From a virus (Duplodnaviria; Caudoviricetes), in the IMG/VR virus record IMGVR_UViG_3300020180_000003, positions 14 through 64,013 of that record: a stretch of 64,000 nt of DNA. One strand, given 5' to 3'. Positions 3,357 to 56,258 of the stretch are shown here, in pieces (positions within the stretch are counted from its first letter, which is position 1; every line of letters starts with the position of its first letter). A program made the translations under genes and the position numbers. The notes below the pieces were generated by a model. It saw nothing but the letters and a program-made list of their open reading frames with translations, was not told the DNA's origin and ran no database searches.

Positions 3357-4568
3357 ATGAGCGAACTAGACGTAACCGGCTTAACTTTCACAATTCCAGC
3401 GCGTATTTTGCGTCCATCCGAACAACGGCAGATGGATTTGCTGGCAATCATCAAAGAGCGCCACGCGTTAGATCCGGCAATCCTTGAGGAAAAAACGCCA
3501 TTCTTTTGGGATGCCGAAATCTCATCGGACCTGATCGACGCCTACTCATCTCACATGGCGCTGAGTACCCTGTCCAATTTCCGTGATGATGCCCGGGCCG
3601 GTGTATCTTTTCTGCCGGGGCACAAACATCACGAACTGCCATTTGGCCGGTCGTTTGAGGCCACGCTGCAAGACACACAAGAGCCGCCACGCACACGCGT
3701 TGTGGCTAGCTTCTACACAATCCCTGGCTTGCGCCTCAACGACATCACGACAGACGACCTGATTGGCGGCTTGCGTAGTGGCATCCTCAAAGACACCTCT
3801 GTTGGTTTTCACGGCGGTGAGCAAACTTGTGATTTGTGCAACCGCAGCATCTGGGATTGGGATTGTGTACACGTCCCGGGCCTGCGCTACGAGGTCAAAG
3901 AGGGCAACCTTGTCAGCGCAAAACTTGCAACATACGCCGTGCATAATGCGCGCCTTTCCGAGGTTAGTAGCGTATTCGACGGCGCTACACCTAGAGCAGA
4001 AGTAATCAAAGCAGAGCGCGAGGCAAGCGAAGGGCGCATGAAGCCCGACGCTGTACGCATGATCGAAGAACGCTATCGGGTAAAACTACCGACTAGGCGT
4101 CAGTTTGCTGTAAGCCAGCAGAAAGACAAAGCAATGGATTTTGAACAAGTAATTAACCAAATTCGCGAGGTGCGCGGGCTTGACGCTTCAGCGGACATTA
4201 TCACGGCGCTACAAAGCGAAGGTGCCGAACTTGGCCGGCTCCGTGCGATTGAGCCAAAATTAGCCGATGCCAGTGCTAAACTCATCGAGCTTGAACCGCT
4301 GGCCGCTGATGGGCGTGCCTATCGTGCTGATCTTGTCGCCGCGGCACTTGAGGAAGGTGTACGCGCCCACGGTGACAAGTTCGACCAAGCCACCTATGAG
4401 ACGGTGCTGCGCAGTTCACCAATCGCCATCATTAAACGGATGCGCGATGACTGGATGGCGACCGGCGATCAACGTCTCTCTGGCGGCCGTCAAAGCACCG
4501 ATGAAGGCGAACCGGCAGGTAAGCCCAAGCAGCGCACAACCGTGCCGCAGAAAGCGTACGCGGTCTAA
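3357..4568 (+). CDS. Prohead protease / scaffold
   Basis: HK97-like protease features (PGHKH, TSVGF, LSEVSSV) with a helical C-terminus; position before MCP. Confidence 0.8.
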   Translation: MSELDVTGLTFTIPARILRPSEQRQMDLLAIIKERHALDPAILEEKTPFFWDAEISSDLIDAYSSHMALSTLSNFRDDARAGVSFLPGHKHHELPFGRSFEATLQDTQEPPRTRVVASFYTIPGLRLNDITTDDLIGGLRSGILKDTSVGFHGGEQTCDLCNRSIWDWDCVHVPGLRYEVKEGNLVSAKLATYAVHNARLSEVSSVFDGATPRAEVIKAEREASEGRMKPDAVRMIEERYRVKLPTRRQFAVSQQKDKAMDFEQVINQIREVRGLDASADIITALQSEGAELGRLRAIEPKLADASAKLIELEPLAADGRAYRADLVAAALEEGVRAHGDKFDQATYETVLRSSPIAIIKRMRDDWMATGDQRLSGGRQSTDEGEPAGKPKQRTTVPQKAYAV

Positions 4569-26991: not shown

Positions 26992-27044
26992 GTTGGTTGA
27001 TTGTTGGTGTATGCCCCGGCATTTCACGCCGGGGCTTGGGACTA
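26992..27044 (-). repeat. 53-bp intergenic leader repeat, copy 1
   Basis: gttggttgattgttggtgtatgccccggcatttcacgccggggcttgggacta. Confidence 0.95.
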
Positions 27045-27296: not shown

Positions 27297-27326
27297 GATG
27301 TTTCTCCTGTTGATTGTTGGTTGAAT

Positions 27327-27379
27327 GTTGGTTGATTGTTGGTGTATGCCCCGGCATTTCACGCCGGGGCTTGGGACTA
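27327..27379 (-). repeat. 53-bp intergenic leader repeat, copy 2
   Basis: Identical to copy 1. Confidence 0.95.
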
Positions 27380-27380
27380 G

Positions 27381-27614
27381 TTAGCGATTGTTTAGCTCCC
27401 GTTCGATTTCTGGCCGCCAGTCATCCGCAGACAGAACTTTACCGTCATAGTCTGTGATGGACACTGCTGCGTCTATGTACTTTATCGTTTCATAGTAATC
27501 AAACGCTTCTATTTTTTCTAACTGCTGTCCGCATACGTCCGACAGCAGTCCTTGCACGAAATCGAGTTGGTTGTAATCGCGGGTATCTACGTTGTATGTT
27601 GGTAAGCTACGCAT
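27381..27614 (-). CDS. Hypothetical protein (cassette 1)
   Basis: MRSLPTY start with CAGGAGA RBS. Confidence 0.65.
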   Translation of the reverse strand: MRSLPTYNVDTRDYNQLDFVQGLLSDVCGQQLEKIEAFDYYETIKYIDAAVSITDYDGKVLSADDWRPEIERELNNR

Positions 27615-27632
27615 TTCATTCTCCTGTTGATT

Positions 27633-27685
27633 GTTGGTTGATTGTTGGTGTATGCCCCGACATTTCACGCCGGGGCTTGGGACTA
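27633..27685 (-). repeat. 53-bp intergenic leader repeat, copy 3
   Basis: One mismatch (27660) relative to copies 1 and 2. Confidence 0.95.
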
Positions 27686-31327: not shown

Positions 31328-32698
31328 TCAGTCACCCCCAGCCGCGCGGCGTGGCAGACGAATAATTTTGGTATCGACAACGGGCTCGATCCGATCCAAT
31401 GCCTGATTGATTTTTGCCGTCCAGGTATTCCCCGCAAATGGCTTGCCAAACGCTGCTTGTGACGCCGCGCTTTTGCTCATGCCAGGAACCCACACGCTGC
31501 GCAATCTAGCCACCATTCTGCTGATCTCATCCTCTACTGACGGCTCTACTGACGGCTCTACTGACGGCTCTACTGACGGCTCTACTGACGGCTCTACTGG
31601 TGGCTCTACCGCACTGCTCACACGAGTGAAAACAGGAAATTCCTGTGCAGTAGAGAAAGCAGTAGAGGTCACACCACGCCACTTGCGCCCAATGCGCGTA
31701 ATCAATGATTCGCTGGCTACTTCATCCAACAGGTACGACTGGTAGCGGATGCAATCCAGGCCCGTGACATACAAAAACGCACCTTTGCCGGGCAACAGTT
31801 CGGCGTGCGTGCCCGGCCGGCCGGCTGCACAACTGGCGGCGCTTGCATCAGCGACCAACCCAACACACCGCGCTGAGAAATTATTTTTGATGGTTGAATC
31901 GCCCATCGCTTTGCCGGTCGGATGCTGGGTTGCAACCAACAGATTGATGTTGGCAGCTCGTCCCTTGCATACCAGTTCACCAACCAAACGCATACAATCA
32001 GCGTCGGCGGTCAGGTCGGCGTACTCGTCGATCACAATCAACAGGCGGGGCATGGCGACACGTTTAGCCTGTCGGCGTGCCATTTCATTGACGGCATCGG
32101 CAAGCACGGTTGAGGCACGGCTAATGGTTGTCGCCAGTACAGTGGCATGGGGCAATCTAGCCAGTGGCACAAGGTCAGTATTCTTCATATCGATCAACAG
32201 AATCCGCAGATCGTCGGGCGACGTATTCCAGCACAATGGCAATAACATATTCAGCATTGCCACACTCTTGCCCGCGCCGGTTGTGCCTGCTATCAGGACA
32301 TGCGGCGCATCGCTGAAACTGTGCCATAGGTCACGCGCCGCGCCGTCGTATGTGCGTCCCAGTAGCATCGAATGTGGTTCGCCGGTCAACGCTTCGGCAT
32401 TCCATAGCAGCGGCTTGCGGTGTGGATGTGTCACCTCCAACCGCAACGGGTGACGCAACAGGCGCACCAGGGTTTTCGTCCGGCGCTTGTTGCTGATAGA
32501 TTCGCTAATCTCCGGTAGGCGGCGCTCGATGTCGCTAATCGCCTGCCCTGCGACGGCACGCAGGCCGTAGATGACAAGCTGATCGCCGCCGACCACGGCC
32601 CAGGCTGGTTTCGTTCCGGCTTTCAGTTTGAAAGCTCGGAGCGTGGCGTTGATTGCCGAAATTTCCGACAGCAGATGTTGGCGTAGTTTGTCGTTCAT
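31328..32698 (-). CDS. FtsK/SpoIIIE-family ATPase (DNA translocase)
   Basis: APHVLIAGTTGAGKS, LIDMK, LLIVIDEYADL, GRAANINLLVATQHP. Confidence 0.92.
   Translation of the reverse strand: MNDKLRQHLLSEISAINATLRAFKLKAGTKPAWAVVGGDQLVIYGLRAVAGQAISDIERRLPEISESISNKRRTKTLVRLLRHPLRLEVTHPHRKPLLWNAEALTGEPHSMLLGRTYDGAARDLWHSFSDAPHVLIAGTTGAGKSVAMLNMLLPLCWNTSPDDLRILLIDMKNTDLVPLARLPHATVLATTISRASTVLADAVNEMARRQAKRVAMPRLLIVIDEYADLTADADCMRLVGELVCKGRAANINLLVATQHPTGKAMGDSTIKNNFSARCVGLVADASAASCAAGRPGTHAELLPGKGAFLYVTGLDCIRYQSYLLDEVASESLITRIGRKWRGVTSTAFSTAQEFPVFTRVSSAVEPPVEPSVEPSVEPSVEPSVEPSVEDEISRMVARLRSVWVPGMSKSAASQAAFGKPFAGNTWTAKINQALDRIEPVVDTKIIRLPRRAAGGD
31531..31609. repeat. 12-bp tandem repeat (VEPS)n in the FtsK linker
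   Basis: (ctctactgacgg) x about 6. Confidence 0.9.
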
Positions 32699-33219
32699 GC
32701 TCCGGCCTCCTCTGACTTGCTGCGTGGCTTGCGCTTGCGCCGGTTAGCCTGTTGCTCTTTGGCCGTGGCCCATCGGCAATTACCCGGGCTGTACCCTTTG
32801 TCATTGTCGATACGATCTATGCTCTTACCTGGTGGCCGTTCCCCCATGTCTGCGTAGAAATTCGCAAAGCTAGTCCAGCGTTCGCAAACGGCTATGCCGC
32901 GTCCCCCGTAGTCGGCATATTGTTTGTGGTTTGAGTTAGTGCAGCGCTGGATCACATGTGCCCATGTCACGTAAGTGCTGGTGCCGGTCAGCCCGTGCGT
33001 GGTGCTGCGCTCGGTGCTGCTCTCGATACGGCGCTCGGCATTAAGACAGCCACATCTGCGCGTAGCCCCGCCTTGCAGGTTGTCACCCCTCACTGTGGTC
33101 TCCTGTCCGCACTCACATCGACACACCCAGCGGGCATTGCCGCTACTGGCATTCGCCGCCCTGCTGATGACGGTCAACCGGCCGTGGTTTTGGCCGGATA
33201 TATCAATTAGCTTTGTCAT
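32695..33219 (-). CDS. HNH homing endonuclease-like protein
   Basis: GRLTV..WVCRCECG, YGGRGIAVCERW, SIDRIDNDKGYSPGNCRWAT..Q..N. Confidence 0.9.
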   Translation of the reverse strand: MTKLIDISGQNHGRLTVISRAANASSGNARWVCRCECGQETTVRGDNLQGGATRRCGCLNAERRIESSTERSTTHGLTGTSTYVTWAHVIQRCTNSNHKQYADYGGRGIAVCERWTSFANFYADMGERPPGKSIDRIDNDKGYSPGNCRWATAKEQQANRRKRKPRSKSEEAGA

Positions 33220-33434
33220 AGTGTCACCTTGCGCGGGAACGTAGCCACCGCGAACACGGCTGTAAGCGCCAGGCCAACCCATAAAGTCGTTGGGATAGCC
33301 ATAATGGACACCGCGACGGCCACCACGGCCACGATAAGCAGAGTGACAAGCAGCAGGGCTTGCAGCAACGTAGCCTGCCATGCTGTGGCGTCACGTACAA
33401 CGTGGGACGTTCCAAATACGATAGTCGATAGCAT
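33216..33434 (-). CDS. Small hydrophobic membrane protein
   Basis: MLSTIVFG start with GGAGG RBS. Confidence 0.55.
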   Translation of the reverse strand: MLSTIVFGTSHVVRDATAWQATLLQALLLVTLLIVAVVAVAVSIMAIPTTLWVGLALTAVFAVATFPRKVTL

Positions 33435-33512
33435 ATTGCCTCCGGTAAATGGATTATGGAGGGCAAACAAATGCCCACCAAAACGATAGAAGATTACCGT
33501 TAGATGGGCATG

Positions 33513-33600
33513 TGCTATACTTGGTATAGCCTGCCCGTTAGGTCTGCTCTAACGGTTATGGGTTACAGGGTGGATAGGTGTTTGCGCACCTGCTACCCTG
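33513..33600 (+). ncRNA. Putative antisense regulatory RNA (extended -10 promoter plus two hairpins)
   Basis: TGcTATACT at 33513-33521, then CCGTTAG/CTAACGG and CAGGGT..AGGTG/CACCT..ACCCTG stems. Confidence 0.4.
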
Positions 33601-33746
33601 GTACAATCTAGATACTGAGTCGAACGCTGCCAGACTTAACATCGGGTAGGCTGCGCAGTCGTGACATTTCTGCCTTAGCATCGGCCTCGTTCACGAGTTT
33701 TGAATGCTTCGTGCCCCGCATTGATTCCCACACGATTTTGATTTTT

Positions 33747-34001
33747 CTATTCGCCATGATTTCCCCCCCGACTATAGCGCTGCTTGATATGGCTAGCTAT
33801 CCCTAGCAGGCGCAACGATTCAGTATATTCATTGCCGGTGAACTTGGTTGCCAGTGCCCCGGCATTCAGCGACGTAATGTCTCCATCTTTGCCGACAATT
33901 GCACGTAACTTGTGGCCGACTCTAGTCGATAGCCGCACAGCGCAATGCGCCTGTATGCGCCGGTACACTTTTTGGCACTGCGTAGGCTCCGGTCGGTTCA
34001 T
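33747..34001 (-). CDS. Hypothetical protein
   Basis: Coupled (ATGA) to the upstream ORF. Confidence 0.5.
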   Translation of the reverse strand: MNRPEPTQCQKVYRRIQAHCAVRLSTRVGHKLRAIVGKDGDITSLNAGALATKFTGNEYTESLRLLGIASHIKQRYSRGGNHGE

Positions 34002-34258
34002 AACTGTTTTGCCTTATCCGCAGTCAGTGCCGCCATCTGTGCATGTAACCGCATTAGCTCACCCTCTAGGCTTTTCAGTCGCCCCCCTAGTCCTTGTACC
34101 ATCAGGCGCAATGACTCAACGTCCAGGCCCGTTACATCCTGCCCGGCGTCAATCGAGCGTAGCAGATTAGACAGGTAGTCGCCCCTTTTGCGCTCACCTC
34201 TGGCCAACTTGTTGAGTAACTCCCCGATCCCATCGTCTACCGACAGGTTTAGACGTTC
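33998..34258 (-). pseudogene. RHH (CopG-like) gene apparently lacking its start, abutting the last CRISPR repeat
   Basis: Frame reads ERLNLSVDDGIGELLNKLARGERKRGDYLSNLLR from the first base after the repeat; in-frame TAG inside the repeat. Confidence 0.55.
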
Positions 34259-34470
34259 CCCCTAACCCCTGCGCGTGTGGGGCGACCGTTTGCCCCGGCC
34301 AATGACAATTCCTGTGCAGCCCCTAACCCCTGCGCGTGTGGGGCGACCCTCGATACGTTGTTCGTGGTTCTGCAACGTTGCCCCTAACCCCTGCGCGTGT
34401 GGGGCGACCTGTTTCCAGGTCAACGAGTTTGGCAGACGCATCCCCTAACCCCTGCGCGTGTGGGGCGACC
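34259..34470 (-). CRISPR. Mini CRISPR array: 4 identical 29-bp repeats, 3 spacers of 32 bp
   Basis: Repeat (minus strand) GGTCGCCCCACACGCGCAGGGGTTAGGGG at 34259-34287, 34320-34348, 34381-34409, 34442-34470; unique spacers; 61-bp period as in type I-E. Confidence 0.97.
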
Positions 34471-34597
34471 CCTATTACGGCAGTCACCCGCAAGGTTATC
34501 CACGCTTACAGGGTTCCTAGTTCATCGGCGCACTATCGTGCTGTCCTCCCTAGGCCATTTTAACGACCACGGTGTAGGTACTCCCGCAGTCGGCGCA
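34471..34597 (-). ncRNA. omegaRNA/tracrRNA-like scaffold with anti-repeat
   Basis: Stems CGACUGCGG/CCGUGGUCG, CCUAG/CUAGG, GCAC/GUGC; segments AACCCUG..GCGUG and GGGUGACU complementary to the repeat. Confidence 0.75.
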
Positions 34598-35770
34598 TTA
34601 GGCTGCGCTTGCCAATCTAACGGCCTCATTGCGAATATTGATTGCAGCGTTGCCGTCTCGTTCGTGTTCAGCCCCACAATCAGGACAAGCCCAGGTTCGT
34701 ATTGACAATGGCAGTTCCTTGACCTTTTCACCACAATTAGAACAGGTCTTGCTGCTGGCGAACCAGCGATCTACAGCGATGACCTTGCCGCCAACAGAAA
34801 TAGACTTGTATTGCAACTGTAGGCGCACTTGATACATGCCTGCATCGCTGACGGCTTTGGCTAATCGGCGATTCTTGACCATGCCTTTGATATTCAGGTC
34901 TTCCACTCCAATCAATCCATATTCGCCAACGATTTCCGTTGTCATCTTATGGGCATTATCCCTGCGAACGTCAGCAATGCTTGCATGTAGCTTGGCAATT
35001 TCCAGTTTTCGCTTTTGGTAGTTTCTCCCCTTCACGTCTGCATCACGCATTCGCTGAAACGACCGTTGCAGTTTTGCGAGCTTGCGTTGATGTTGTTTTA
35101 GCGCCTTGGGGTTGCGATAAACCACCCCGTCGCTAGTGACGGCCCGATACCTGATTCCCATATCAATCCCGACCGTCTTCGATATGTCGGCGGTCTGTTC
35201 AAGGTCGGCGACTTCGGACTGTACGGCAAGATACCAGTACCCGCCCGTGTAGCTGACGCGTCCGCCCAATACTTTCCCTTCAAAGCGCAAAGGTTCGGCC
35301 ATATTAACGGCCCCGTCTGGGCAGCGTGAAATCATGACGCCGTGACCGTCAAACTTCATTCCGCCATTGTTAGCAAGTCCAAAGGACGGCGTTACCTTGT
35401 CGCGTGACTTGAAGCGCGGCCAACCAAACGGCTTCCCGTCCTTGCGCGGTTTCCAGCCTACTGGTGCCTTCAAGGTGCCTTTTTTCCTTAGATCAAAGTA
35501 TCGGCTGATCGAAGATTGTAAATCTTGAAAGGCGTACTGATTGGCGTAGGTTTGTACTTCTGCCACAAAAGGTGCAAATTCTTCCTGATTGCGCCGACGA
35601 TTAAACTCCTTCTTTAATTCTAGAATTTTGGGCTTCTCGCCACGTGTTAACCCGTTGTTGTATTCAGCCAACGCCCAGTTCCATGTAAAGCGGGCGATTC
35701 CTGCGCACTGCCAAAAGTAGCGAGCCTGTTCGTCAGTTGGGTTCAATCGTATTCTGTGCGCCCGAATCAT
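34598..35770 (-). CDS. tnpB: TnpB-family RNA-guided endonuclease (Cas12-like, CRISPR-associated)
   Basis: N-terminal HTH (IRLNPTDEQ), RuvC-I GIDMG, RuvC-II VEDL, Zn finger CSNCG/CPDCG, RuvC-III RDGNAAINI; catalytic D-E-D intact. Confidence 0.95.
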   Translation of the reverse strand: MIRAHRIRLNPTDEQARYFWQCAGIARFTWNWALAEYNNGLTRGEKPKILELKKEFNRRRNQEEFAPFVAEVQTYANQYAFQDLQSSISRYFDLRKKGTLKAPVGWKPRKDGKPFGWPRFKSRDKVTPSFGLANNGGMKFDGHGVMISRCPDGAVNMAEPLRFEGKVLGGRVSYTGGYWYLAVQSEVADLEQTADISKTVGIDMGIRYRAVTSDGVVYRNPKALKQHQRKLAKLQRSFQRMRDADVKGRNYQKRKLEIAKLHASIADVRRDNAHKMTTEIVGEYGLIGVEDLNIKGMVKNRRLAKAVSDAGMYQVRLQLQYKSISVGGKVIAVDRWFASSKTCSNCGEKVKELPLSIRTWACPDCGAEHERDGNAAINIRNEAVRLASAA

Positions 35771-35831
35771 CTAGAACTCCTATCCACAATATCGCCAGAA
35801 TGACTGTATGCCACCTAGATTTGATTTTATA

Positions 35832-36050
35832 CTATATTGCCGTGTATTCCGGTGTTGCGCTTGTTTCTAGCGCCTCTATGCGCTGTTCATGATTATCTAG
35901 TCGTTTCGCAATTGAGTCGTGGTGTCGATAATCACGAACAAACATTTCCACCAACGCGGCGCGTCCTTTGGTGCCTTCCACTTTACAAATCTTATCCATT
36001 GCATCTATCGTCTGTTGAGATAATCGCAATGACAAAGGTTTATTTGCCAC
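35832..36050 (-). CDS. RHH-type DNA-binding protein
   Basis: GTG start with GGAGG RBS; KPLSLRLSQQTIDAMDKIC...RAALVEMFV. Confidence 0.7.
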   Translation of the reverse strand: MANKPLSLRLSQQTIDAMDKICKVEGTKGRAALVEMFVRDYRHHDSIAKRLDNHEQRIEALETSATPEYTAI

Positions 36051-36089
36051 ATCGCCTCCGTAGTCCGTTCGTATCACCATTTGGGCTAC

Positions 36090-36119
36090 ATTCTAACACG
36101 ACTCCATCCCCCGTGTCAA
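36090..36119 (-). promoter_or_regulatory. Sigma70-like promoter for the RHH-tnpB-scaffold-array unit
   Basis: TTGACA-N18-TAGAAT with TG extension. Confidence 0.65.
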
Positions 36120-36529
36120 GCACCAGTTTTCAATGGTGTCCGTTCTGTGCGGTTGTAGCATTCGTTGATGCGCGCCCGCAATGTTTCGCGCTCGGCATCG
36201 CTCAGTCGGAGCCAGGGTCGCACGCTTTGAGCGATGGTCGTTTCGATACGCGGTGCGGGGCGTTTCTCTGGGCGTGGCGACGCTCTGGCTTTTTTGCGCA
36301 GTGGCGGCTGGCGCGGCGTCCCGGCAATCTCCTGCTGTGTGCGGCGTTTCACGCAACCGCAACTCCGCACTTTGCCTTTAACAATGTCGGCGGCGGCCAC
36401 GTTGCGCGTACCGCCACAATCGCAGAGGCATTCCCAGAGGATGCCGCCGCTTTTGTTTTTGCCGACCACGCGCACGGCTACCAGTTTCGTCGATCTCATC
36501 CCTGCTACGTTCAATGACTGCCTGATCAT
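36116..36529 (-). CDS. Protein with HNH-endonuclease-type N-terminal Cys domain
   Basis: LWECLCDCG...VRSCGC resembles the N-terminus of 32695..33219. Confidence 0.55.
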   Translation of the reverse strand: MIRQSLNVAGMRSTKLVAVRVVGKNKSGGILWECLCDCGGTRNVAAADIVKGKVRSCGCVKRRTQQEIAGTPRQPPLRKKARASPRPEKRPAPRIETTIAQSVRPWLRLSDAERETLRARINECYNRTERTPLKTGA

Positions 36530-37137
36530 TTCGTTTGCCCCTTTCGATACAATTTGAAACAATTACTACACATCGTTGTCAGCGGCCACGCCCGTCGATC
36601 CCTGGCCGTCTGCGCTGTCACCCACTGCGCTTGCACCGACCGACCGCAAAGGCCCACGGTGCCCATATCGCGGCTGATGTGGATACGTGCCCCATTTCGC
36701 CCGATTAGCGCCCATTGCGGAGGCGCCGGAGGACAGACGCAGCCGTTGATGCACCCGCAGTCAGAACACACGATATCGGCGGCGGGTAGCTGTTCGCCGT
36801 AGACGTACCACGGCGCCGCAGCTAGTGTTTCGATATCGGCCAACACTGGCGCAAACTCCATGGAGCGGCCCACATTGTTGGCCGCGAATAGGCCGCATAA
36901 CATTTCGGCATAATGCCGGCTCGCGATCGGATCGGGCCCAACCGGGATGACTGGCACACACCGGCCTGGATGTTGGGCATTGGTGTAGCGTCGGCCCTCC
37001 TTCTCCAGCGACGTACCGCCACTAATTGCCGACAGAGGCCAGCGAATTTCGACAATCCAGAACAGCCGGTGCAATTCGTTCTGACGAGATGCCCCGGCGA
37101 TGACTTTGCGCTGGAAGGTGTTAGTCTGGGTTGACAT
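36526..37137 (-). CDS. Hypothetical Cys-rich protein
   Basis: Coupled ORF. Confidence 0.55.
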   Translation of the reverse strand: MSTQTNTFQRKVIAGASRQNELHRLFWIVEIRWPLSAISGGTSLEKEGRRYTNAQHPGRCVPVIPVGPDPIASRHYAEMLCGLFAANNVGRSMEFAPVLADIETLAAAPWYVYGEQLPAADIVCSDCGCINGCVCPPAPPQWALIGRNGARIHISRDMGTVGLCGRSVQAQWVTAQTARDRRAWPLTTMCSNCFKLYRKGQTK

Positions 37138-49347: not shown

Positions 49348-49596
49348 ATGAATGGAAAATTGCCACCACCAGTTTGGGAAGATGGCTACCCAGCCAATCT
49401 GTCCGCCACAATCGAGGATTCTCTGATGTGGATGAGGGCGCACCGAGACTACATCGCCACTATCTGTCGAATCAACCGCAGTGCTAAGGCGAGCATCGCT
49501 GATAATCTGCAGCGCATAGAGCAATGCATCGAGTTCATGGAGTCCTACCTACCAGACGCGGAAAGCCACATCGAGAAAATCATCGAATCAGCCTAG
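49348..49596 (+). CDS. Hypothetical protein
   Basis: GAGGA RBS. Confidence 0.5.
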   Translation: MNGKLPPPVWEDGYPANLSATIEDSLMWMRAHRDYIATICRINRSAKASIADNLQRIEQCIEFMESYLPDAESHIEKIIESA

Positions 49597-49742
49597 TCGC
49601 TTCACGGTCGCCGCCGCCTGCAACATGCTGCAACGTCGCACCCCGCAGGCTATCGACCATCAATCCACCGGCGAAGGCGGGCAGTCGGGTAGCTCACACT
49701 CTTATTTGGAACGAGCCTGTTCTGGTCCAATCAAGGAAAATC

Positions 49743-50567
49743 ATGAACAACAAAACCAATGGTATGCGCGCAAACCTAGCTGGCGCAAACCTATGGGGTA
49801 AAAACCTAGTTGGCGCTAACCTAGTCGGTGCGAAACTGCGGGGCGCTGATCTAGGGAGCGCTTTGCTGGATGGCGCGAATCTGCGGGATGCGGATCTAGG
49901 GGGCGCTTCTCTGTGGAATTCTCGCCTAGAGGGTGCCGATCTAAAAGGTGCCAATCTAGTCGGTACCGATCTAGTCGGTACCATTCTGACGGGTGCAAAT
50001 CTAGAGGGTGCCAATCTGTCGGGTGCCAATCTGGAAGGTTCGGATCTGACGGGTGCCAATCTGGTCGGTGCCAAGCTAGTTGGCGCTAACCTAGTCGGTG
50101 CGAAACTACGGGGCACCAATCTGGAGTGTGCCAATCTGTTCGGTGCCAATCTGGAGGGTGCCAATCTGGAGTGTGCCAATCTGTTCGGTGCCAATCTGGA
50201 GGGTGCCAATCTGGAGTGTGCCAATCTGGAGGGTGCCAATCTAGTCGGTGCCAATCTGTCGGGTGCGGATATGTCGGGCGCGGCTCTAGAAGGTTCGGAT
50301 CTGACGGGCACTGTTCTAGAAAATGTCAAAAATATTATTATAGCGGGTACCGATCCCCGCGGGCATCTATTCTATGGCTCCATTGACAAGAACGGATGCC
50401 TGATCGTAAAAGCCGGTTGCCGGAAATTCGCTGGCGTGGATGCTGCGAATATGCACTGGCGGGTTCGACATCATGACGATCCAGTACTCCACGCGGCTTG
50501 CCTGGATCTGGTTAGTGAGATCGAAGAAAAAGCTGCTCGCAATGGGTGGCAGCTTAACCCCAATTAG
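49743..50567 (+). CDS. Pentapeptide repeat protein
   Basis: Long A(N/D)LxG tract (15-bp repeats); C-terminal VKAGC domain. Confidence 0.95.
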   Translation: MNNKTNGMRANLAGANLWGKNLVGANLVGAKLRGADLGSALLDGANLRDADLGGASLWNSRLEGADLKGANLVGTDLVGTILTGANLEGANLSGANLEGSDLTGANLVGAKLVGANLVGAKLRGTNLECANLFGANLEGANLECANLFGANLEGANLECANLEGANLVGANLSGADMSGAALEGSDLTGTVLENVKNIIIAGTDPRGHLFYGSIDKNGCLIVKAGCRKFAGVDAANMHWRVRHHDDPVLHAACLDLVSEIEEKAARNGWQLNPN

Positions 50568-54374: not shown

Positions 54375-56258
54375 ATGTCAATTTGGATTTCAAAAGAAGA
54401 GATTGCCGCGTTGCCCACAAGCGGCACTGCATGGAATAGTGTTCTAAGTGCAGCGAATAGCAGCTGGGGCAGCGCGGACCTGTCCGACAACAACAGTTCG
54501 CACGATGTCGCCACACTAGCCGGGGCACTGGTGGCGGTGCGCAATGCAGACAATGCCATGCGCGAGAAAACGATTGCAGGCCTCAAGTCTGCAATGGCGT
54601 CGAAGTTTGCGCGGGCGCTTGAACTGAGCCGTGGGCTGCAAACGTATATCATAGTTGCCGACATCATCGGCTACCGTGATGCAGCTTTTCTGACGTGGGT
54701 AGAGAAAGCTACCACGGCCACCGTGCAAGGCCATTCTGGTGGCGACGGCGTTATCGGCACAGCCGAGCAATCCGCCAACAACTGGGGCGGTCATGCCCGG
54801 GCATCACTAGCCGCCGCCGCTGTATTCCTGAACCGTACCGATTGGAAGGCATTGATCATCACCGCTCACCGTGCCTTCATCGGGGCAAGCGCACCGGGAA
54901 ACAAGATGCGCTATGGCAGTACCGGCTGGCACGCTGGCACACCACAGTCGGGTATCAACCGGCCTGATGCAAAAAGAGGTGCAGTCAGTCTGTCCGGCGT
55001 GCTTGCCGAAGACTGGCGGCGTGGTGCTGATTTCAAGTGGCCCCCGTCTGCTAGCGGCTATATGTGGGAGGGTATGCAGGGGCTGGTTGTGACCGCGGTC
55101 ATCCTACACCGTGCTGGCTGGGTAGCGTTCAATGAGTCTGACAATGCGATTGTGCGCGCTATGGATGTGCTCTATGGTACCGGCGCGGCGGCTGGCAATA
55201 GTCCAGTATTCAAAAACCCCGCAGCCAGTGATGACACATGGATCCCCTGGATAGTCAACGCTGTTGCTGGGACAAGTTACCCGACGACCGCCGCTTCGTC
55301 TGGTAAAAATATGGGATACACCGACTGGACGCACGCCAAAGCGGGCACAGCGCCACCAGTGGAACCACCCGTGGACCCGCCACCCGTCGATCCGCCACCG
55401 ACTGGTACATCGCCAATGGATTTTCTGGATTCATCAAGCTGGTATCTCACGCTCCCGACAAAAATCAAGGCTACGCCTGACACGGTGAAAATACCAGAGT
55501 TGCGAACCTACGCTAGCGAATGGTTTCGTTTGAATAGTGCCAAGGACGGCGTTGTTTTCAAAGCGCCCACAGACGGGGCAACGACAACGAACTCAAAGAA
55601 CCCACGTTCTGAATTGCGCGAGATGTCACCCGATGGCAAGACGCAAGCCGCCTGGTCATCGACCACGGGCACGCATTCGATGGATATTGAGCAGATGGTC
55701 AGTGCCGTGCCGATTGGCAGCAAGCCCGTCGTGGTGGTGGGGCAAATTCACGACGAAGACGACGATGTAACCGTATTCCGATTCGAGGGCAATACCAGCG
55801 GCGACCGCAATGTCGGGGAACTCTGGATCACCGATGGCAACACATCGCATGGTCATCTCGTAGATGACAACCTGGCGTTAGGCACCAAGTTCAGCGTAGG
55901 GTTCCAGGTGGCTGATGGCAAAATAACCTACACCTACAACGGCCAGACGGTGGATTATACACAATCCAAGAAACTCAGCGGCTGTTATTTCAAGGCTGGC
56001 TCCTACAACCAAGCCGGTGGCATTGTTACTAAGCTGCCCGATGGTAAAGCCGACTATGCCGAGGTCACGATCTACGCGCTTCAGGTATGCCATGATGGAA
56101 AATGCACCGGACGCAAGCCAGGCGTTATCGTGCCACCTGTTGACCCACCCGTAGACCCGCCCATCACATACAGCCTGACGGTTACGGGCGCCGCGACATC
56201 TATCGCTGCGTTAAAGGCTTTCATCAAGGCTGACACGTCTTCGCTGAAAGTCAGCTAG
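54375..56258 (+). CDS. Two-domain polysaccharide (alginate-type) lyase
   Basis: C-terminal PL7 motifs PRSELRE, QIH, YFKAGSYNQ; N-terminal helical domain with ANNWG; Pro-rich linkers. Confidence 0.8.
   Translation: MSIWISKEEIAALPTSGTAWNSVLSAANSSWGSADLSDNNSSHDVATLAGALVAVRNADNAMREKTIAGLKSAMASKFARALELSRGLQTYIIVADIIGYRDAAFLTWVEKATTATVQGHSGGDGVIGTAEQSANNWGGHARASLAAAAVFLNRTDWKALIITAHRAFIGASAPGNKMRYGSTGWHAGTPQSGINRPDAKRGAVSLSGVLAEDWRRGADFKWPPSASGYMWEGMQGLVVTAVILHRAGWVAFNESDNAIVRAMDVLYGTGAAAGNSPVFKNPAASDDTWIPWIVNAVAGTSYPTTAASSGKNMGYTDWTHAKAGTAPPVEPPVDPPPVDPPPTGTSPMDFLDSSSWYLTLPTKIKATPDTVKIPELRTYASEWFRLNSAKDGVVFKAPTDGATTTNSKNPRSELREMSPDGKTQAAWSSTTGTHSMDIEQMVSAVPIGSKPVVVVGQIHDEDDDVTVFRFEGNTSGDRNVGELWITDGNTSHGHLVDDNLALGTKFSVGFQVADGKITYTYNGQTVDYTQSKKLSGCYFKAGSYNQAGGIVTKLPDGKADYAEVTIYALQVCHDGKCTGRKPGVIVPPVDPPVDPPITYSLTVTGAATSIAALKAFIKADTSSLKVS

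Follow-up and report, generated by a model that had tools for sequence, protein, structure and literature searches.

A cas-less mini-CRISPR array of type I-E geometry in a tailed-phage genome and the resemblance of its middle spacer to a neighbouring RHH-like gene

On the minus strand of the tailed-phage genome studied here, an RHH-like gene (35832..36080), a tnpB gene of the IS200/IS605 OrfB type (34598..35770), the 3' part of an omega-RNA scaffold (34479..34597) and a mini-CRISPR array devoid of cas genes (34259..34470) follow one another, and the other genes around the array lie on the same strand. The window, by which we mean the whole 64,000-nt stretch analysed, covers, except for 13 bases, a virus record of 64,013 bp that has direct terminal repeats and is rated complete. 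According to Pfam and PHROG matches, this 64-kb genome codes for portal, major head/capsid, tail and replication proteins, and a Pfam scan of 70 ORFs of the window detected no Cas families. The stretch is contained in one public run, which comes from a microbial mat metagenome and is probably its source. Contigs of that run break at the array repeats, and none of them showed a variant or an empty array site.

The array consists of four identical 29-nt repeats (34259-34287, 34320-34348, 34381-34409 and 34442-34470; four matches where none is expected) and three different spacers, all of exactly 32 nt (34288-34319, 34349-34380 and 34410-34441), which gives a period of 61. On the plus strand the repeat reads CCCCTAACCCCTGCGCGTGTGGGGCGACC. 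CRISPR arrays are generically defined by at least three near-identical repeats of 23-50 nt with unique spacers of similar length, and 34259..34470 is such an array; as a cas-less array in a viral genome, it is also one of the virus-borne mini-arrays. Its geometry, a 29-nt repeat with 32-nt spacers, is that of type I-E, and, by its repeat sequence, the array has its type I-E sense orientation on the minus strand. Using a two-copy core pattern, we found at least 120 bacterial loci with period-61 arrays, many of them labelled Chloroflexota. The minus-strand phage repeat is identical to their common repeat at 20/29 positions, and its best Hamming distance to the repeats of the period-61 arrays listed is 9. 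The phage array thus shares repeat length, spacer length and a CCCC...GGGG core with these bacterial type I-E arrays. Unlike them, it is not accompanied by cas genes, and its repeat deviates from the common I-E one in two stem pairs, which are broken, and in the 3' handle, the 3' repeat end being GGGG in the phage whereas type I-E arrays usually have ...ACCG. The hairpin of the phage repeat is no stabler than those of shuffled sequences. Rfam searches at E<=10 returned no CRISPR-DR family for the repeat and no family of any kind in 33500-36500.

Searches for the same repeat elsewhere were likewise negative. The exact 29-nt repeat gave no match in genome_contigs, and its 21-nt core gave none in viral_contigs. 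When up to three mismatches were allowed, the repeat was absent from all 401 genomes sampled from the phylum to which the genome with locus L005 belongs, and from three other genomes. The whole array gave only matches with E>=0.7 against phage records and none against plasmids.

The tnpB gene encodes a protein of 390 aa with Pfam matches above cut-off to HTH_OrfB_IS605, OrfB_IS605 and Cas12f1-like_TNB, and with a match to phrog_506 at 8e-100. It carries the RuvC-like motifs GIDMG, GVEDLN and RDGNAAINI, which we take to contribute the catalytic D-E-D triad. With its predicted HTH, OrfB (RuvC) and zinc-ribbon domains and these motifs, the protein is to be classed with the IS200/IS605 family. Downstream of the gene, 34479..34597 is homologous to the 3' flanks of 15 TnpB relatives: the window sequence ATGAACTAGGAACCC ... 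GGGTGACTGCC aligns with TTGAATCAGGAAGCC ... CTGGTAGTTCAC of the relatives, which diverge beyond it. This homology points to an omega-RNA that overlaps the 3' end of tnpB and terminates at the right end of the element. The end of the scaffold is placed by homology at ~34479-34480, 8-9 nt before repeat 1, and therefore the array lies outside the tnpB element. Because the element ends so close to repeat 1, no normal leader is left to the array. Given this scaffold end, the natural guide of the tnpB element would be made up of the junction (window 34471-34480) and the first bases of the repeat.

The original prediction had spoken of a TnpB-CRISPR module. TnpB-derived systems of the TranC and type V kind are reportedly those of Jin et al. 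2025. To such systems the phage locus could be related as a functional module, a transposon-CRISPR intermediate or a type V-like system, with TnpB guided by the array RNAs; tnpB is intact, and the array starts 127 nt further on along the same strand. What the phage locus has in common with TranC and type V (reviewed in PMC13565253) is an array that directly follows a TnpB-family gene on the same strand, and the points of difference are an unsplit omega-RNA, the lack of an anti-repeat, an I-E-like repeat and the absence of the array in relatives. The homology of the omega-RNA scaffold to those of ordinary relatives extends to a point 8-9 nt short of repeat 1. A candidate pairing of the repeat with an anti-repeat upstream reached -32.4 kcal/mol, compared with -28.8 +/- 2.75 kcal/mol for shuffled sequences, 10% of which pair as well, and the repeat shows no similarity to the scaffold. 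Both the 29/32 geometry and the sequence of the array are I-E-like and not type V-like. Even with up to nine mismatches, the array repeat occurs in 0/136 loci of TnpB relatives. The closest of these relatives, L085 (53% identity), follows a portal gene, without an RHH gene, in a locus whose downstream side is covered for 42-51 nt.

A periodic repeat of some kind was seen in the fetched flanks of eight of the 136 TnpB-relative loci; among the four of these that were inspected, only L122 has an array adjoining the gene. In this viral contig (L122:1-1150), a TnpB-like ORF that is cut by the contig start and is 39% identical to residues 163-380 of the window TnpB is followed after ~140 nt by 37-nt repeats, three of them full and one partial, with spacers of 36-37 nt, and an anti-repeat is located just upstream of the array. 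Used as a positive control, the L122 anti-repeat duplex reached -25.4 kcal/mol, compared with -16.6 +/- 2.5 kcal/mol for shuffles, only 2/500 of which were as good. L122 looks like a TnpB-derived CRISPR module (TranC or type V-like) in a phage, and as such it indicates that modules of this kind exist among phage TnpB relatives. Another viral contig with a TnpB relative, L090 (6591-6932), contains six copies of a 39-nt palindromic repeat with a period of 51-66 nt, 2.5 kb downstream of that relative. For the array studied here, we consider guidance of TnpB by its RNAs to be close to negligible in probability. What had been called a TnpB-CRISPR module is to be described instead as an array lying outside an ordinary inserted element that has an omega-RNA of its own, and the adjacency of the two is most likely a juxtaposition and not a functional TnpB-CRISPR module.

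It is conceivable, though in our estimate very improbable, that the 8-9-nt junction is a snapshot of a TnpB element freshly landed on the leader side of the array. If so, read-through would produce chimeric omega-RNA-repeat-spacer transcripts, which could be raw material for TnpB-derived CRISPR effectors or could give TnpB or host Cas proteins access to a common guide store within the phage.

The RHH-like gene on the other side of tnpB encodes a protein of 82 aa whose C-terminal helix bears the motif matched by the middle spacer; around this motif the ORF 35832-36080(-) contains ...KRLDNHEQRIEALE.... Its match to Pfam RHH_1 (E=0.007, 16.7 bits) is under the cut-off of 20.5, and no PHROG match was found. 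An AF2 monomer model built from four sequences shows helices at 16-35 and 37-74, no strand and a pLDDT of 69. Since the Pfam score is below cut-off and the model contains only helices at this pLDDT, the assignment of an RHH fold is tentative. The family is small, with three cluster representatives among 5.8 billion proteins. The cluster of the window protein has four further members, and three distant homologs (P0088, P0090 and P0092) were found among 1.84 billion representatives. Searching viral_contigs with the RHH-like protein alone gave no relative, and searching phage records with the family member P0002 gave nothing.

The gene is nevertheless present, at 91-94% nucleotide identity, in two related phages, L141 and L142. 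There it is followed by the start of an FtsK-like gene (L141) or directly by small ORFs and an FtsK-like gene (L142), and both tnpB and the array repeat are absent. As the gene is present in these two phages in the absence of tnpB and array, it belongs to the phage backbone, and the stretch from the RHH-like gene to the FtsK-like gene is a variable region that holds the array. In this respect the proposal that spacer 2 is aimed at a regulator beside a rival's TnpB-CRISPR module finds no support: in both relatives the gene stands without either component. A sequence downstream of the RHH-like gene in L141, GGGGTGAACCG, was considered as the remnant of a solitary repeat and rejected, being FtsK-like coding sequence that is also found in L142. 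Similarity to L141 and L142 ends at 35863-35865, within the last codons of the RHH-like gene, and the C-terminal tails differ, with TSATPEYTAI in the window and ARKD and THQSAQG in relatives. This point may mark a boundary left by recombination or insertion.

Upstream of the RHH-like gene, a promoter-like site at 36090..36119 (minus strand; TTGACA-18-TAGAAT, 11/12, with TG) could drive RHH, tnpB and array as a single minus-strand transcript; the site is a consensus match only, and the number of such sites in the region equals the expectation from shuffled sequence. The RHH-tnpB-array region is flanked by two HNH-endonuclease-like genes (phrog_374) at 32695-33381 and 36116-36562, the profile match of the latter being limited to the non-catalytic part of phrog_374. 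Elsewhere in the genome, a sequence of ~50-70 nt, perhaps a regulatory element that is repeated between small genes, is present in three copies (26994-27044, 27320-27379 and 27612-27685) and recurs twice in L142 (15194-15250 and 15509-15582) at 88-92% identity. The window also encodes a 347-aa pentapeptide-repeat protein (49524-50567), a 627-aa protein with an alginate-lyase domain (54375-56258) and an FtsK-like protein with a VEPS tandem repeat (31328-32698), genes that are possible hints to the host and its capsule type.

The middle spacer, spacer 2 (34349..34380), reads CA ACG TTG CAG AAC CAC GAA CAA CGT ATC GAG on the minus strand, that is, x-TLQNHEQRIE, and is unique in the window at up to three mismatches. 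The equivalent segment of the phage's own RHH-like gene (35874..35905, minus strand) reads KRLDNHEQRIE. The two agree at 8/10 amino acids and 19/32 nucleotides, with a longest identical run of 5 nt. Within the heptapeptide NHEQRIE there are five synonymous third-position differences (in the codons for N, H, Q, R and I), and the Leu codon adds another synonymous difference (CTA vs TTG), so that six of the eight shared codons differ in this way. The description in the original prediction, which had set TLQNHEQRIE beside RLDNHEQRIE and had counted 19/32 identical nucleotides and the five synonymous differences, was correct in every detail. Regulation of the phage's own RHH-like gene by a crRNA of this spacer was rejected, the longest identical run being 5 nt.

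Taken as DNA, the match is background: another site in the window matches spacer 2 at 20/32. An exact run of seven residues in a comparison of six frames with six frames is reached by 0.5-0.9% of random 32-mers (114/20000 32-mers from other loci, 105/20000 spacer shuffles and 179/~20000 32-mers from the reversed window). When the comparison is confined to real phage reading frames, that is, to the annotated proteome, a BLOSUM62 score of 41 or more was obtained by 3/4000, 11/11996 and 9/12000 random 32-mers (~0.08-0.09%), which corresponds to a probability of about 0.001 per spacer and about 0.003 over the three spacers. We conclude that the resemblance between spacer 2 and the gene is real and is statistically unusual at the protein level.

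The reading that we favour, tentatively and at a little under an even chance, is that spacer 2 comes from a diverged homolog of this neighbouring gene and serves interviral exclusion through the Cas proteins of the host. No backbone gene lies closer upstream of the array than the matched one, and conservation within the RHH-like family is highest in the matched segment: P0002, which is only 67% identical overall, retains 8/10 of it. The close members (the window protein, P0001-P0003 and P0084-P0087) all read KR[LI]DNHE[QR]RIE. Two observations count against a diverged homolog as the source. Spacer 2 has T and Q where the close members have R and D, and the reading TLQ is absent from these members as well as from the three distant homologs. 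The synonymous sites, moreover, are randomised between spacer and gene, and a chance similarity would give the same picture.

Chance is a serious rival to that reading, and one that we regard as doubtful but entirely possible. It would mean that the array is a real mini-array whose spacer 2 derives from an unrelated gene, from non-coding sequence or from another reading frame, and that the NHEQRIE match is a coincidence helped by a recurrent motif of helical or metal-binding kind. The match was noticed post hoc, and the nucleotide identity and the six-frame frequencies given above count in favour of this explanation. The motif is indeed recurrent. As the original prediction had cautioned, HEQRI-like heptads are common in coiled coils, and units of the type LDNHE[QR]RI..LE were found in the unrelated coiled-coil proteins P0094, P0096 and P0097 (in P0097 as a RLDNHERRI..LE-like unit) and in the unrelated contigs L143 and L144. 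The caution also holds for another protein family. The pattern L-x-NHEQRIE occurs in at least 120 viral contigs (L145-L264), and among the matches listed 120/120 loci read LGNHEQRIE, 70 of them TLGNHEQRIE, which agrees with the spacer peptide at 9/10 amino acids and at up to 25/32 nucleotides. The carrier is a widespread phage metallophosphoesterase, mostly of 250-270 aa (phrog_221 at 2.5e-50; Pfam Metallophos), in which GNHE is presumably the metal-binding motif. This phrog_221 protein with its invariant LGNHEQRIER is the main carrier of NHEQRIE among viral contigs.

The phosphoesterase was, however, rejected as the main source of the spacer, and we take it to illustrate how such a motif can recur. 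Such a source requires Q (CAG in the spacer) at a position where 120/120 of the listed loci have Gly, LQNHEQRIE as a DNA pattern has no match in viral_contigs, and the window contains no homolog of the phrog_221-type enzyme. The only match to LQNHEQRIE in genome_contigs, which falls in an open frame of 41 codons in the bacterial MAG L265 and is identical to the spacer at 19/32 nt, was rejected as well. Chance has further to account for a match in real reading frames that fewer than one in a thousand random 32-mers attain, and for its falling in a gene that adjoins the array, as is predicted by the pattern in the literature.

The two outer spacers bear on chance as well. For spacer 1, the proteome of the phage itself gave no match. 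Spacer 3 (34410-34441; minus strand x-ASAKLVDLET) resembles the in-frame segment DASAKLIELEP (4267-4298) of the gene at 3357-4568 at 22/32 nucleotides, with a score of 34 that 1.4-2% of random 32-mers reach. The resemblance lies on a variable segment and places T in the spacer where nearly all of 79 homologs have P. We did not count it as support, and the outcome for both spacers is in line with coincidence.

Targets were sought for all three spacers, and no protospacer for any of them was found in the collections searched, which counts against the reading that we favour. Exact spacer 2 gave no match in viral_contigs or in metagenome_contigs, exact spacer 1 gave none in viral_contigs, and a pattern back-translated from the spacer 3 peptide, which covers the exact spacer, gave none in viral_contigs. 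In L141 and L142 the best agreement with spacer 2 is 20/32 and 19/32, respectively. Conversely, the spacers of the listed bacterial period-61 arrays (at least 120 loci) had no match to the phage beyond 16-18 nt. The proposal that spacer 2 targets the equivalent locus in a relative is thereby only partly borne out. In its favour are the unusual resemblance at the protein level, the position of the matched gene as the nearest backbone gene and the fit to a published pattern; the relative itself is missing, no family member reads TLQ, and the check that had been suggested, a search of phage contigs with the exact spacer, returned 0 matches and so no protospacer gene.

The failure to find a target for any spacer is what one expects if the array does not target at all. 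It could be a decaying passenger from a host array, or it could give rise to an RNA decoy or regulator by which host Cas proteins are tied up or redirected, the content of the spacers being then irrelevant or aimed at host cas promoters. The state of the repeat agrees with this: nine mismatches from the common I-E repeat, the two broken stem pairs, the different 3' handle and a fold like that of shuffles, besides the loss of the leader side to the tnpB element. Phage RNA anti-CRISPRs that mimic repeats have been described (PMC10651486), as have regulatory phage mini-arrays (10.1101/2023.03.03.530964). Decay is at odds with four identical repeats and three spacers of exactly 32 nt, and a decoy with the described ones being mostly solitary repeats. 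A non-targeting array would also leave the non-random peptide match of spacer 2 unexplained. We consider this explanation unlikely.

Under the favoured reading of exclusion through host Cas proteins, read-through from the RHH/tnpB unit would yield a minus-strand transcript of the array. The transcript would be cut and loaded by type I-E-like Cas proteins of the host, which would then be aimed at competing phages and bring about superinfection exclusion. Spacer 2 would have been acquired from a distantly related phage with a diverged RHH-like homolog. The copy in the carrier itself would escape targeting because it differs at 13/32 positions and offers no seed match. The position of the array outside tnpB, the homology of the omega-RNA to those of relatives and the minus-strand orientation of the neighbours were counted in favour of this reading.

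Cas-less mini-arrays of viruses have been reported to target related viruses, often at sites near the array, the carrier's orthologous site being mutated (PMC6858448, 2019), and 1,132 mini-arrays in 1,005 viral genomes are given in a later survey (bioRxiv 10.1101/2023.03.03.530964). Since spacers there target array-near genes of which the carrier has a mutated copy, the phage array and its resemblance to a neighbouring gene fit that pattern. We regard the array as an unverified instance of a known phenomenon. The likeness to the arrays of PMC6858448 comprises a short cas-less array, an array-near gene related to a spacer, a mismatched copy in the carrier and the proposal that superinfection exclusion works through host Cas proteins. 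The cases also differ. The spacers described there match the rival at or near 100%, the rival being ~92% identical, and the carrier locus is a few mutations off the spacer, whereas the own locus of the present phage differs at 13/32 positions. Those arrays have host-like leaders, whereas here the tnpB element abuts repeat 1, and their carrier is an archaeal virus, whereas ours is a bacterial-type tailed phage.

With the phage and prophage mini-arrays and solitary units covered by the survey in PMC6858448 and by Shmakov et al. (10.1101/2023.03.03.530964), the array shares the possession of at least three repeats without cas genes. The surveyed mini-arrays are often leaderless as well, and their spacers mostly target other viruses. 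They were found by means of similarity to known host repeats, whereas the phage repeat has no matching host array in the genomes searched. RNA anti-CRISPRs (Racrs; PMC10651486) are likewise phage-encoded repeat mimics without cas genes; they are described as solitary repeat units, whereas the phage array has four perfect repeats and three unique 32-nt spacers.

If spacer 2 truly derives from a diverged homolog, CRISPR-based conflict between viruses, so far a matter of archaeal viruses and well-studied prophages, would extend to an uncultured tailed phage of a microbial mat, and to rivals whose divergence has left only the protein sequence recognisable. Set beside L122, the locus also offers a clean contrast between a chance juxtaposition of an insertion sequence with an array and a true TnpB-derived CRISPR module.
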